Shown one piece after another: positions 9,643 to 11,295 of a stretch of 64,000 nt of DNA (its first letter is position 1; each line of letters begins with the position of its first letter). Both the position numbers and the translations under genes were made by a program. The notes under the pieces are model-generated. The model saw nothing but the letters and a program-made list of their open reading frames with translations. It ran no database searches and was not told where the DNA came from. This DNA comes from Escherichia phage EP_H11: the sequence record OP688485; one strand, written 5' to 3'.

Positions 9643-10254
9643 ATGAAGTCACGACTGATTATCAGCCCACATCACGATGATGAGATTCTGGGTTGCGGAG
9701 GTATTATGAGCAAATTCCGCGACGACCAATTCTTCATCCTCGAGGTAACTGCTCCGGACGAAGCCCGTCGTGGAGAAGCTGAAGCAGCATTCTGTGTCTA
9801 TCCAAATATCAAAGAAGTACACTGCCTGGAGCGTAACGATGCCTCCACAGGTGATGGTATGACTCAGAAGGATATTCCGCAATTAGCTAAGGATATTGCG
9901 GACTATGTTGCTAAGATCAGACCAGATGTAGTTTACATCCCATTCAGTAGTCTCCATCAGGACCATCAGCTGGTGAATCATGCTGCTCGTGTAGCTCTCC
10001 GAGCGTATAACTGGCTTATTCTGGAATATGAGTATGCCGAGTCCCTGACCCAGTTTGGTCAGATGGAGCCTAATTACTTCGAGCGTCTGAATAAGGACGA
10101 TATCGAATGTAAGTGTCGGGCTATGGGGATGTTCAACTCCCAGATTAAGTCAGACCGAGATACCCAGAGTATCTTAGCTCTGGCTACCTTACGTGGCTAT
10201 TCTGCCCAGTGGCCATACGCCGAAGGATTTCGTTTAGTTCGTCAAATTGGATAA
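9643..10254 (+). CDS. PIG-L/LmbE-family N-acetylhexosaminyl deacetylase
   Basis: Signature SPHHDDEILGCGG plus downstream HQDH zinc-ligand motif. Confidence 0.75.
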   Translation: MKSRLIISPHHDDEILGCGGIMSKFRDDQFFILEVTAPDEARRGEAEAAFCVYPNIKEVHCLERNDASTGDGMTQKDIPQLAKDIADYVAKIRPDVVYIPFSSLHQDHQLVNHAARVALRAYNWLILEYEYAESLTQFGQMEPNYFERLNKDDIECKCRAMGMFNSQIKSDRDTQSILALATLRGYSAQWPYAEGFRLVRQIG

Positions 10255-10260
10255 ATAATT

Positions 10261-11295
10261 ATGACTACCAAAGTAGCTTTTATCATCCCAACCTATCATC
10301 GTCTGGAGTCAGTACTTCGCCAGATTCAAACGTTCAAAGATGCTAACAAGACTGATGACTCTATCGAGTATCGCTTCTTCTACTTTATGCAGGATGCTTC
10401 CGAAGAGGATAAGGCAATTCTGGAAGAGCAGTTTGGTGGGGACGAGCAGTTTAATTTCTGGCATCGTCCTAAGTACGATAATCCGGTAATCGGAAGAATC
10501 CGAGCTCATGCTCTTGATAAGGCATGGATTTTAATGGAAGATCAGAACTGGTGTCCAGACATCTGCTACTTTGTGGATGATGATGTCTGGTTCTCCGACA
10601 ATATCTTCCATCTGGATCGATCCATTATCGACTTCGAGGGATCTGAGTTTGAGATGGCGTTCGTCCGTAGCTTCAAGAATCGTAACTACAAGATTGTTGA
10701 ACTCTGCGATCGTCAGTCCCATAATAACACTGCTCCGGCTACTGACCTCGGTATCATGGTCAAGACCAGTGAGAAGATGTTCTGGCTGTTCGATATAACC
10801 TTCCAACAGTTGACCGTAGGTGAAGATTGCTACCTGTTGTTTAAAGGTATGGCGATGGGGTGGAAAGTAGGCCAGGTAACCGGTACCGGTAGCTCGTTCT
10901 ACTGGGATGAGAACTGGTTAATGGACACCTCTTCTAATGGTGGTGGTATTCACGAAGTTACCGTAGCTAAGCTGGGCTACTCTCCGAAAGATATGGTAAC
11001 TCGTAATGAGCTGCTCAGCCGTCCGGATAAGTCCTACGTACAGTGGCATTGCGCAGACATGTTCCACTATGACTCTGCAGATAGCTCGTTCCGCCGCATT
11101 CGTCCCAACATCCAAGAATACCTGAAAGAATATTGTACAGCTACGGAAGATGCAATTATCCGAGCTCCTGGTGCTGGGGTAATGAAGTTCGATGGAACTA
11201 ACCGTACGGTATTCGGATTAAACAAAGACTATTCCTACTTAACTGATCTCAATGATAAGTGGCTGAGTTGGGCATCAGATAATTCGCTTCTTTGA
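10261..11295 (+). CDS. GT-A fold (GT2-like) glycosyltransferase
   Basis: N-terminal VAFIIPTYHRLESV and acidic YFVDDDVWF (DxD-like). Confidence 0.55.
   Translation: MTTKVAFIIPTYHRLESVLRQIQTFKDANKTDDSIEYRFFYFMQDASEEDKAILEEQFGGDEQFNFWHRPKYDNPVIGRIRAHALDKAWILMEDQNWCPDICYFVDDDVWFSDNIFHLDRSIIDFEGSEFEMAFVRSFKNRNYKIVELCDRQSHNNTAPATDLGIMVKTSEKMFWLFDITFQQLTVGEDCYLLFKGMAMGWKVGQVTGTGSSFYWDENWLMDTSSNGGGIHEVTVAKLGYSPKDMVTRNELLSRPDKSYVQWHCADMFHYDSADSSFRRIRPNIQEYLKEYCTATEDAIIRAPGAGVMKFDGTNRTVFGLNKDYSYLTDLNDKWLSWASDNSLL

Follow-up and report, generated by a model that had tools for sequence, protein, structure and literature searches.

The window, a stretch of 64,000 nt from Escherichia phage EP_H11 (OP688485), is ~93% identical to Escherichia phage vB_EcoM_IME392 (IME392). 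Two adjacent genes on its + strand are considered here. The first (9643..10254) encodes a soluble protein of 203 aa and pI 5.4, a putative zinc-dependent N-deacetylase of the PIG-L/LmbE family; the second (10261..11295) encodes a soluble protein of 344 aa and pI 4.9, a predicted GT-A fold (GT2-like) glycosyltransferase from a near-orphan family restricted to phages. The pair lies in the replication and nucleotide-metabolism block of the genome, inside a hypermodification cluster that also holds a TS-like hydroxymethylase (with a uracil-type Asn), a P-loop kinase, an HD nucleotidase and an aGPT-Pplase (PF18723). Thymidine (5-hmdU) hypermodification clusters are defined by a TS-like dUMP hydroxymethylase, an aGPT-Pplase and a 5-HMUDK (Iyer 2013; Lee 2018, 2021); the window carries the TS-like dUMP hydroxymethylase together with an aGPT-Pplase (HMUDK_hel) protein. 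The phage encodes RNA polymerase subunits of its own.

The upstream edge of the cluster is marked by a class I SAM methyltransferase-like protein (6420..7160, +), which gives weak matches to Pfam Methyltransf_25/31/23 (2.9e-5, near the cut-off) and has a homologue in locus L009 (5e-81) that adjoins hypermodification genes. It is followed by a near-orphan protein of 302 aa (7262..8170, +) with only 4 homologues among 5.8 billion proteins and no Pfam or PDB matches. An ATP-grasp assignment for this protein, prompted by GGKGAG and IETNFR motifs and by its alignment with ATP-grasp paralogues from related loci, was unsupported, with an hhalign probability of 0.2%. The next gene (8174..9556, +) encodes a transporter of the BCCT (betaine/choline/carnitine) family (Pfam PF02028 at 1.6e-91; NCBIfam betaine BCCT at 8e-72, below the equivalog cut-off); a transporter does lie on the upstream side of the pair, where the first-pass annotation had placed one. 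The BCCT and 302-aa genes co-vary: both are present in L002 and L003, and both are absent from L009 and L011.

Directly downstream of the pair lies a gene for a protein of 359 aa (11343..12422, +), homologues of which stand downstream of the pair in L002, L003, L007, L008, L009 and L011. The one family profile to give a signal is Pfam Glyco_trans_1_2, with a sub-threshold E=0.01, and the protein is possibly a second (GT-B-like) transferase; neither a profile search of the PDB nor any of three hhalign runs against GT4-type phage proteins supported GT-B. The aGPT-Pplase (12422..13393, +; Pfam PF18723, 4.4e-35, 121.8 bits against a cut-off of 25) belongs to the HMUDK_hel family of DNA-glycosylase-like transferases of thymidine hypermodification, and its closest homologue in a characterised phage is ViI gp160 (27% identity). 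The P-loop kinase (13471..14205, +; Pfam AAA_28 2e-9; PHROG 'thymidylate kinase') overlaps the start of the TS-like gene and is a candidate for either a 5-hm-dUMP kinase or a DNA 5-hmdU kinase. With this kinase as query, tblastn retrieved only IME392, Ab1-TPeters and RP13, and not the ViI and M6 kinases, so that by this comparison a recognisable 5-hmdU DNA kinase is not evident in the cluster; 5-HMUDK was likewise not detected in IME392 by others (10.1101/2025.03.26.645540). The relatives in Ab1-TPeters and RP13 adjoin TS or HD genes, and around the Ab1-TPeters kinase there are TS and HD genes but no Pplase. The TS-like protein (14202..15275, +; Pfam PF00303 at 2e-11) retains the catalytic Cys and, in alignment to PDB sequences, has Asn where TS has Asn177 and the CMP hydroxymethylase MilA has Asp. 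Asn at this base-discriminating position suggests a uracil-type enzyme, presumably a hydroxymethylase rather than a methylase, and the IME392 orthologue is listed as a 5hmdUMP-pathway TS (PMC12686479). The last gene considered encodes an HD-domain YfbR-like deoxynucleotidase/dNTP hydrolase (15359..15958, +; Pfam PF12917 1.6e-14; phrog_7076), which is presumed to help exclude canonical dT nucleotides.

A 40-nt promoter-like element occurs in six copies between 6200 and 16400, each upstream of a gene start. Its invariant core, AAAGGCTGTTA, is found 16 times on the + strand against an expectation of 1.05; a sigma-70 promoter scan, by comparison, gave 16 matches against 18.5 expected in shuffled sequence, that is, no excess. 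The fourth copy (9545..9584, +; core at 9564-9574) reaches into the final codons of the BCCT gene and stands ahead of the deacetylase gene, a position that is the same in L002 and L003. With the next copy (11284..11323, +; core at 11303-11313), which extends into the 3' end of the transferase gene, the two-gene unit comes to a close. The TS, kinase and Pplase genes stand under the same repeated motif, and in L009 two copies flank the entire stretch that starts with a 261-aa gene and ends with the Pplase. Between the fourth copy and the ribosome-binding site of the deacetylase gene sits a hairpin (9592..9628, +) with an 11-bp stem containing 7 G-C pairs and followed by ATTTTTGTGT; it is the top match of a terminator-like scan and looks like a terminator or an RNA-stabilising structure. 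The arrangement described in the first-pass annotation, with the transferase gene 6 nt after the deacetylase gene and both under the fourth copy of the element, agrees with these coordinates. The two genes are probably co-transcribed and translationally coupled.

The 203-aa protein can be assigned to the PIG-L/LmbE family (PF02585, CAZy CE14) on the basis of sequence, and hydrolysis of an N-acetyl group is the activity predicted from the family. It matches PF02585 at E=3.4e-14 (53.9 bits, cut-off 28.2) over profile positions 1-128 of 129, and phrog_11796 at 2e-21; among PDB sequences it matches TT1542 and diacetylchitobiose deacetylase, and a separate search gave a weak match to BshB1. Family members carry (A/P)-H-x-D-D near the N-terminus and H-x-x-H some 100 residues further on. 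The corresponding zinc/catalytic motifs are P9-H10-H11-D12-D13 and H105-Q-D-H108, both of which align with the motifs of TT1542. Nine phage homologues all keep Q106, D107 and H108, and four close homologues all keep H10, D12, D13 and H105-H108. With a dN/dS of 0.035 the gene is under purifying selection, and its catalytic motifs are intact. An IMG/VR scan with PIG-L returned seven loci at ~30% identity; these are uninformative for the system in the window because none of the hypermodification genes is nearby.

The 344-aa protein has no Pfam, NCBIfam or PHROG match even at E<=10, and phmmer against the PDB is also empty. The profile searches proposed as a check in the first-pass annotation thus succeeded for the deacetylase and returned nothing for its partner. 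No curated GT2 profile matches the window protein itself; two of the 17 family members, both distant, match Glyco_tranf_2_3 (3.5e-5) or Glycos_transf_2 (1.3e-3), and a profile of the family matches TarS at E=0.004. An AF2 model built from four sequences had a pLDDT of 46 beyond residue 108, and the fold was resolved after an exhaustive HMMER search had added 13 homologues. Foldseek comparison of the predicted structure to the PDB then indicated a GT-A fold, with TarP as the best match, although identity to TarP and TarS is only 11-14%. D106-D107-D108, the putative DxD motif, lies directly after strand 101-104 of the model and is invariant in 17 of 17 family members, as expected for the GT-A transferase that the first-pass annotation had recognised from the same residues. 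Also conserved within the family are R14 and E188-D189-C-Y191. On the strength of the model we regard the protein as a predicted GT-A fold glycosyltransferase. Among its structural neighbours GlcNAc, Glc, Rha, Galf, GalNAc and Man all serve as donor sugars, and donor specificity cannot be read from the fold; the C-terminal ~100 residues have no counterpart among the structural matches.

The transferase family is rare. It has 15 matches among 1.84 billion (1.84e9) representative proteins, is carried by IME392 only among 50,697 phage records, and has no loci in the IMG/VR scan. Rarity of this order suggests a specialised enzyme rather than a generic envelope transferase. Neither protein of the pair contains a transmembrane segment or a hydrophobic stretch resembling a signal peptide, and the cluster contains no nucleotide-sugar biosynthesis genes; together these observations fit reliance on a donor that the host has in abundance, such as UDP-GlcNAc. 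There is no flippase or lipid-carrier enzyme near the pair, and a Pfam search found no acetyltransferase in the cluster.

The order deacetylase then transferase recurs in seven independent phage loci (the window/IME392, L002, L003, L007, L008, L009 and L011). The genes are separated by 4-6 nt or overlap by 4 nt, and transferase identity among the loci falls as low as 27%. For L011 the deacetylase is a cut ORF at the start of the locus, which local phmmer identifies as a PIG-L protein. Those loci that extend far enough for a judgement are all topoisomerase-to-TS/kinase hypermodification clusters, and across the seven loci the pair is strictly linked to 5-hmdU clusters. A co-varying trio of deacetylase, transferase and aGPT-Pplase was considered and rejected, the L011 pair having no Pplase at the syntenic site.

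Several known systems bear comparison. One set of phage GT-A DNA glycosyltransferases has been validated by experiment, and certain members attach HexNAc and di-HexNAc to 5hmC; these enzymes were described with an R...DDD...ED(Y/F) pattern, with TarP as best PDB neighbour and with the T. cruzi JGT as best neighbour in the AlphaFold database (10.1101/2023.12.21.572611). Compared by description only, the window enzyme appears to resemble these and the base-J glucosyltransferase in its GT-A fold, in its motifs (R14...DDD106-108...E188-D189-x-Y191), in having TarP nearest and in the presence of a TS homologue nearby. Unlike the published phage enzymes, to which no similarity is detectable by HMMER or Pfam, it belongs to a separate family of 15 representatives, is always preceded by a PIG-L deacetylase (the word 'deacetyl' occurs 0 times in 10.1101/2023.12.21.572611) and presumably acts on a thymine rather than a cytosine derivative.

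A transferase encoded together with a PIG-L/LmbE deacetylase with conserved zinc/catalytic motifs is also the arrangement of MshA-MshB, BshA-BshB, PIG-A-PIG-L and BtrM-BtrD/NeoD-NeoL. In these pairs, of the mycothiol, bacillithiol, GPI anchor and aminoglycoside pathways, abundant UDP-GlcNAc is used and an amine is then unmasked. The Msh/Bsh-type partner is a retaining GT-B (GT4) enzyme using UDP-GlcNAc and the acceptors are small molecules or lipids, whereas in the window the adjoining transferase is GT-A, the context points to DNA and the deacetylase gene comes first. To our knowledge the partner transferase in characterised PIG-L/LmbE pathways is GT-B (GT4/GT1) and never GT-A, and the LmbE enzymes characterised so far all take small molecules or lipid-linked compounds as substrates.

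The clusters of ViI, M6, PhiW-14, SP10 and PaMx11 (PMC5889632, PMC8989533) share with the window a clustered TS-like hydroxymethylase, P-loop kinase and aGPT-Pplase and the expectation of post-replicative tailoring of 5-hmdU. Their pathways append amino acids, with tailoring by PLP, radical-SAM, FAD or acetyltransferase enzymes, and unlike the window they have no glycosyltransferase, PIG-L deacetylase or transporter. The window Pplase resembles ViI gp160 rather than the proven amino-acid:DNA transferases, and the window kinase shows no similarity to 5-hmdU DNA kinases of proven activity. In the SP-15/YerA41/Carin-5/RP13 group thymidine is hypermodified with oligosaccharides; IME392 has been included on account of its SP-15/YerA41-like polymerase, with T-modification and glycosylation predicted (PMC12686479; 10.1101/2025.03.26.645540). 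Carin-5 has a modified T with a 203-Da HexNAc and a predicted GlcNAc N-deacetylase among its glycosyltransferases, but this is annotated as a polysaccharide deacetylase, a family other than the PIG-L of the window. An independent parallel comes from Ralstonia phage RP13, a phage with heavily modified DNA: its genome holds a PIG-L gene (PF02585, 1e-18) in the neighbourhood of genes for a GT-B-like protein and an aGPT-Pplase; the similarity of its PIG-L to that of the window is only remote (BLASTP E=0.13). ORF105 of RP13, which adjoins the PIG-L gene, is related to neither the GT-A family nor the 359-aa family, and the window GT-A family is absent from the SP-15, YerA41, Carin-5 and RP13 genomes. 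Finally, the best structural matches, TarP and TarS, are wall-teichoic-acid beta-GlcNAc transferases (GT2) that use UDP-GlcNAc to glycosylate hydroxyls on a polyanionic phosphodiester polymer; the window enzyme differs in having neither trimerisation nor C-terminal domains. E. coli has no teichoic acid.

The location of the pair inside a thymine-replacing cluster suggests that the two enzymes put an amino sugar on phage DNA, a type of decoration not yet shown chemically. By homology and from the literature, the TS-like enzyme, the kinase and the HD hydrolase would fill the pool with 5-hydroxymethyl-dUTP, and the polymerase would build 5-hmdU into DNA. The GT-A enzyme, in which DDD would bind the metal and ED would serve as catalytic base, would then use a host nucleotide sugar, most economically UDP-GlcNAc. 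The acceptor would be a hydroxyl on the modified base in DNA, either that of 5-hmdU itself, as with the base-J glucosyltransferase, or alternatively one on a group added by the 359-aa or aGPT-Pplase protein encoded nearby. Family chemistry predicts that the His/Asp/His zinc site of the PIG-L/LmbE enzyme would hydrolyse the N-acetyl group and expose a protonatable amine. This amine might be left as it is, so that a cationic glycan would lie in the major groove, or other genes of the cluster might derivatise it.

Addition of an N-acetylhexosamine to DNA and its subsequent deacetylation, by the pair acting in an IME392-like thymidine-hypermodification pathway, is the best available explanation; we consider it plausible if unproven, its likelihood falling a little short of even. 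The amino-sugar reading of the first-pass annotation is upheld in part: its enzyme assignments hold, and genomic context favours DNA as the target because the pair is embedded in a 5-hmdU cluster and travels with it in seven loci. The donor sugar, the acceptor and the order of steps are ones that we infer for a pair of acidic proteins; the transfer-then-deacetylate logic stays at that level because the partners elsewhere are GT-B, because both proteins are acidic, and because several LmbE pathways re-acylate the freed amine instead of leaving it free. The net charge of -17 on the GT-A protein is unusual for a DNA-binding enzyme and counts against DNA as acceptor; the lack of an evident 5-hmdU DNA kinase, and the seven IMG/VR loci in which PIG-L relatives have no hypermodification genes around them, also weigh against the explanation.

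Alternatively, the pair may work off the DNA, converting a small-molecule GlcNAc-X into GlcN-X as in bacillithiol, mycothiol or aminoglycoside synthesis, after which the conjugate, or a free amine serving as nucleophile, would be added to an activated 5-hmdU hydroxymethyl group with either the aGPT-Pplase or the 359-aa protein as catalyst. A compound brought in by the BCCT transporter is a candidate for X. The substrate range of the LmbE family as we know it, every characterised member taking a small or lipid-linked GlcNAc conjugate, argues for this route, as do the nearest deacetylase matches (BshB1, TT1542 and diacetylchitobiose deacetylase), the low pI of both proteins (5.4 and 4.9) and a transporter for small quaternary amines directly upstream. 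Furthermore, aGPT-Pplase enzymes move free amines or amino acids onto DNA (PMC8989533). The pair is nonetheless kept in L011 without an aGPT-Pplase at the syntenic position, and in L009 and L011 without a BCCT transporter, while the motif set and best PDB match of the transferase agree with descriptions of DNA-acting phage GT-A enzymes. We judge the off-DNA route unlikely.

It is also conceivable that deacetylation of a DNA-bound sugar is an intermediate step, freeing the amine for another acyl or alkyl group and so producing an N-substituted sugar. Candidates for the substitution are the 302-aa protein, using a carboxylate such as glycine betaine or carnitine that the BCCT protein would bring into the cell, or the methyltransferase of the cluster. 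Deacetylation followed by re-acylation is the rule in MshB/MshC, BshB/BshC, teicoplanin deacetylase/acyltransferase and NodB/NodA; the 302-aa and BCCT genes co-vary; and in RP13 and in Vibrio phage V-YDF132, which also has a methyltransferase, a PIG-L gene is followed by WbqC-family genes. However, no test upheld ATP-grasp as the identity of the 302-aa protein, the pair occurs without the BCCT and 302-aa genes in L009 and L011, and the transporter substrate is predicted from family only. An N-substituted end product therefore seems distinctly unlikely to us.

A target other than DNA, either host envelope glycans (for example, in superinfection exclusion) or virion proteins, would parallel the glycosyltransferase operons of mycobacteriophages. 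PIG-L genes annotated 'glucosaminyl deacetylase' do adjoin galactosyltransferase genes near the left genome end of Mycobacterium and Arthrobacter phages, but the actinophage PIG-L proteins are only 23-29% identical. TarP, the best structural neighbour, is a prophage enzyme glycosylating wall teichoic acid, and most phage GT-A genes do not adjoin base-modification genes (10.1101/2023.12.21.572611). Against this, the pair sits in the replication block under a promoter-like motif common to the TS, kinase and Pplase genes, and linkage to these genes is kept in seven loci; membrane segments, signal peptide-like stretches and a nearby flippase or lipid-carrier enzyme are all lacking. We consider an envelope or virion target improbable. 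Very improbable is a non-sugar substrate, in which the deacetylase would cleave an N-acetyl or amide on a thymine adduct (compare 5-acetylaminomethyl-dU) and the GT-A enzyme would act independently: N-acetylated thymidine adducts exist in phages (PaMx11, PMC8989533) and Mca, an LmbE protein, works as an amidase and is no simple deacetylase, but strict adjacency and overlapping stop and start codons in the seven loci argue for consecutive steps, and the cluster has no acetyltransferase.

Returning to an amino sugar on DNA, the pair plausibly extends a known theme, phage DNA glycosylation on 5-hydroxymethylpyrimidines. Hypermodifications govern the resistance of phage DNA to restriction enzymes, CRISPR and other nucleases, and decide whether a genome is open to sequencing or amplification in the first place. 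The DNA glycans known to us are neutral or acidic sugars or N-acetylhexosamines, and the cationic DNA modifications known to us are amines from amino acids or polyamines. A deacetylated amino sugar on DNA would join both strategies, bulk and positive charge, and an LmbE-type deacetylase acting on DNA would be a new enzyme class among DNA-modifying tools. It is doubtful, though worth stating, that IME392-like coliphages carry a de-N-acetylated hexosamine on their thymine-replacing base, made by the GT-A and PIG-L enzymes on polymer DNA, which would be the first DNA glycan with a free or re-derivatised amine. In the boldest version, a quaternary-ammonium compound imported by the BCCT transporter would be attached to this amine, and an imported osmolyte would become part of genome chemistry. 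PIG-L genes in RP13 and in GT/ParB clusters of Vibrio and Stenotrophomonas phages suggest that the theme may recur. IME392 is a cultured phage, and the host is E. coli.

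The window is DNA of a phage. Across 9000-13500, where every gene is on the + strand, it shares 93.1% identity with Escherichia phage vB_EcoM_IME392 (MH719082.1); a search of 50,697 phage records gave no other match. The first-pass annotation had assigned the ORF at 9643-10254 (203 aa) to the PIG-L/LmbE deacetylases from sequence motifs. These motifs (IISPHHDDEILGCGG and SLHQDHQ) are present, and a profile search agrees with the assignment: the ORF matches Pfam PIG-L (PF02585) at E=3.4e-14, far over the curated cut-off, as well as phrog_11796 and the solved LmbE-family structures TT1542 and diacetylchitobiose deacetylase. 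Its zinc/catalytic motifs, H-x-D-D and H-x-x-H, line up with their TT1542 counterparts and are retained by every phage homologue collected.

Six bases past the deacetylase stop codon, the spacing originally reported, begins the putative transferase gene (10261-11295, + strand, 344 aa; motifs FIIPTYHR and VDDDVW). No profile library searched recognised the protein, and phmmer found nothing in the PDB. Relatives are so few that it is almost an orphan: three turned up among 5.8 billion proteins searched by word index, and fifteen among 1.84 billion cluster representatives searched exhaustively with HMMER. In the resulting 17-sequence family alignment DDD106-108 is invariant, and R14 (in P-x-Y-H-R), Q44, G78, D189 (in V-G-E-D-x-Y), G228, G229 and R281 are nearly so. 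AlphaFold2, given this alignment, produced a model of high confidence (pLDDT 87.6, pTM 0.89; pLDDT was 46 in a run on four sequences), and the IME392 orthologue as modelled in BFVD superposes on it at TM 0.98. The best Foldseek matches in the PDB are TarP, CgT, RmlT, TarS and AvpGT (E 5e-9 to 1e-7); the family profile finds TarS at E=0.004, and two distant family members match Pfam GT2 models. This model and these matches identify the protein as a GT-A-fold glycosyltransferase, so the earlier call, made on two short motifs, was right. Relative to IME392, dN/dS is 0.035 for the deacetylase and 0.033 for the transferase, by which measure both ORFs are real genes.

The pair lies within a co-directional (+ strand) cluster. 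On the upstream side are topoisomerase II subunits, a methyltransferase-like protein (6420-7160), a 302-aa near-orphan (7262-8170; 4 homologues among 5.8 billion proteins) and, directly 5' of the pair, a full-length BCCT (betaine/choline/carnitine) transporter (8174-9556), which sits within the DNA-modification cluster of a lytic phage. Next after the transferase come a 359-aa protein (11343-12422), an aGPT-Pplase/HMUDK_hel protein (12422-13393; PF18723, 4.4e-35; nearest to ViI gp160), a P-loop kinase (13471-14205), a thymidylate-synthase (TS) homologue (14202-15275) and an HD nucleotidase (15359-15958), followed by helicase and family-A DNA polymerase genes. The TS homologue retains the catalytic Cys and has Asn where thymidylate synthases carry Asn177 and the CMP hydroxymethylase MilA carries Asp, which points to a uracil substrate. 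The cluster holds no sugar-nucleotide genes; UDP-GlcNAc is plentiful in E. coli.

Contigs were recovered for homologues (L010 is the same contig as L002 and was counted once). The order deacetylase then GT-A is found at seven independent loci (window/IME392, L002, L003, L007, L008, L009 and L011), the genes separated by 4-6 nt or overlapping by 4 nt, with GT-A identity down to 27-39% in the more distant L007, L008 and L011. All seven also have a homologue of the 359-aa protein 3' of the pair, adjoining it except in L011, and kinase and TS genes come next wherever the contig extends that far. The BCCT transporter co-varies with the 302-aa protein: both are present in the window, L002 and L003, and both are missing in L009 and L011; aGPT-Pplase is missing from the syntenic site of L011. 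Because transporter and Pplase are both variable among loci that keep the pair, gene content indicates that the pair depends on neither. A paralogous second GT-A stands beside a phosphatidylserine-decarboxylase-like (pyruvoyl) protein and an ATP-grasp protein in L009 (5418-7962) and L010 (4446-6981), and in L011 (383-3241) the latter two genes come after the PIG-L-adjacent GT-A. This module, missing from the window, suggests a more elaborate glycan with an amino-acid-derived substituent in related phages. More distant GT-A family members on short contigs form tandem paralogues, and one of 525 aa (P0014; L025 574-3709) is directly 3' of a gene resembling QueC, a 7-deazaguanine pathway gene, a hint that the family's role may extend to guanine-type DNA modifications.

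The IME392 TS orthologue has been listed, along with dCTP deaminase, as a 5hmdUMP-pathway enzyme (PMC12686479), and IME392 is grouped by polymerase with SP-15, YerA41, Carin-5 and RP13 (PMC12686479; 10.1101/2025.03.26.645540). Thymidine modification involving glycosylation was predicted for IME392, in which a 5-hmdU DNA kinase was undetected (10.1101/2025.03.26.645540). Certain phage GT-A enzymes, HexNAc and di-HexNAc transferases among them, are reported to have been shown to glycosylate 5hmC in DNA and resemble the base-J glucosyltransferase, which acts on 5-hmU (10.1101/2023.12.21.572611). We favour DNA as the target of the pair because of its strict linkage to the genes for 5-hmdU, because its GT-A family is extremely restricted, and because that family's R...DDD...ED-x-aromatic pattern, with TarP as best PDB neighbour, resembles the published description of the phage GT-A DNA glycosyltransferases. 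To our knowledge, all characterised LmbE enzymes deacylate the 2-amino group of GlcN-type residues, and given this chemistry N-acetylhexosamine is the natural guess for the sugar. A putative HexNAc would be transferred to a modified thymine in DNA and then N-deacetylated, a scheme that is our leading explanation but is held tentatively, at slightly under an even chance.

Other phages offer independent parallels. In Ralstonia phage RP13 (LC554890.1; coordinates of locus L027), whose DNA is heavily modified, ORF106 (1923-2564), annotated as hypothetical, belongs to the PIG-L family (PF02585, 1e-18). After it come a WbqC-family protein (2836-3558), a CxxCxxCC protein (3558-4043), a GT-B-like protein (5306-6418; Glycos_transf_1 at 9e-5, under cut-off) and the aGPT-Pplase ORF120 (10802-11776). 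The modified T of Carin-5 bears a 203-Da HexNAc, and the phage has a predicted GlcNAc N-deacetylase amid glycosyltransferase genes. In Vibrio phage V-YDF132 (L004 6001-11996) and Stenotrophomonas phage DLP5 (L005 6001-12568) a PIG-L gene heads a cluster encoding WbqC-like proteins or WcaG/WecE sugar-nucleotide enzymes, a methyltransferase, a large GT4 glycosyltransferase and a ParB-like protein; each cluster may represent a separate system for modifying DNA with amino sugars. DNA of DLP3, a relative of DLP5, resists 15 restriction enzymes (PMC7326821). The window kinase resembles solely those of RP13 and the 110-kb Acinetobacter phage Ab1-TPeters. In the latter (L020 11998-14530) the gene order kinase, TS-like, HD recurs beside primase, helicase and PolA genes, with no Pplase, glycosyltransferase or deacetylase nearby. 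This suggests that the triad is a 5-hm-dUTP supply module and that the window kinase may act on a nucleotide, unlike the kinase in the pathways of Lee et al., which acts on DNA.

The first-pass proposal that a sugar is added to DNA and then deacetylated draws partial support from the enzyme identities and the linkage to 5-hmdU genes; against it, the known LmbE partners are GT-B and both proteins are acidic. The pair could instead act on a small-molecule amino-sugar conjugate and not on DNA directly. The transferase has a net charge of -17 (pI 4.9) and the deacetylase a pI of 5.4, and the LmbE enzymes known to us take small or lipid-linked substrates and have GT-B partner transferases. We regard this alternative as unlikely. 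Less probable again is a variant in which the sugar amine on DNA is deacetylated to be re-acylated. An envelope or virion target is weaker, with genomic location, conserved synteny and the lack of membrane segments against it.

Phage DNA glycosylation on hydroxymethylpyrimidines, T-hypermodification clusters with aGPT-Pplase and GT-A DNA glycosyltransferases adjoining TS homologues are already known. In the searchable literature we found neither an LmbE/PIG-L deacetylase as fixed partner of a DNA-type GT-A within such a cluster, nor the implied amino-sugar DNA modification, nor a BCCT transporter inside such a cluster; the nearest published statement is a gene-annotation remark on Carin-5. As IME392 is a cultured coliphage, the pathway is open to direct test.

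The repeat said to precede the pair as the fourth "class I" copy is real. It is an element of ~40 nt (CCGCT..TTT....AAAGGCTGTTAAGGTGT) with an invariant core, AAAGGCTGTTA, found 16 times on the + strand of the window against 1.05 expected by chance (3033, 6382, 7223, 9564, 11303, 13439, 15295, 18879, 22480, 32906, 38067, 45024, 50219, 51616, 54331 and 55406). Copies are co-directional with genes and tens of bases 5' of their starts, as are all six in 6200-16400, and positions are kept in IME392, L002 and L003. Copy 4 (core 9564-9574) precedes the deacetylase gene and copy 5 (core 11303-11313) overlaps the transferase gene end, 5' of the 359-aa gene; the pair therefore forms a unit of its own with a copy at either side, as it does in L002 and L003, and in the more distant L009 two copies enclose the whole hypermodification block. 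A strong hairpin with a trailing T-run (9592-9628) lies between copy 4 and the deacetylase start. Terminator-like hairpins are enriched 2.5-fold in 6200-16400 (15 against 5.9 expected), the strongest lying in intergenic spacers beside the element (6321-6342, 7169-7190, 9592-9618 and 15305-15332).

Sigma-70-like promoters show no excess over shuffled sequence, and the phage encodes RNA-polymerase beta-prime-like fragments, for which reasons the element is probably a phage-specific promoter. Two ORFs (26582-28096 and 29676-31244) match largest-subunit (beta-prime/Rpb1) domains of multisubunit RNA polymerase, the subunit being divided between genes in the phiKZ/AR9 manner. It appears that this coliphage, of the 116-kb class, encodes a multisubunit RNA polymerase of its own, and transcription of hypermodified DNA may require it. 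Elsewhere in the window, an SMC/RecF-like AAA_23 ATPase (15-2174, 719 aa) lies 5' of the topoisomerase genes, and further 3' is an NAD-dependent DNA ligase (38110-40053), an enzyme that according to the literature co-occurs with SP-15-like polymerases.
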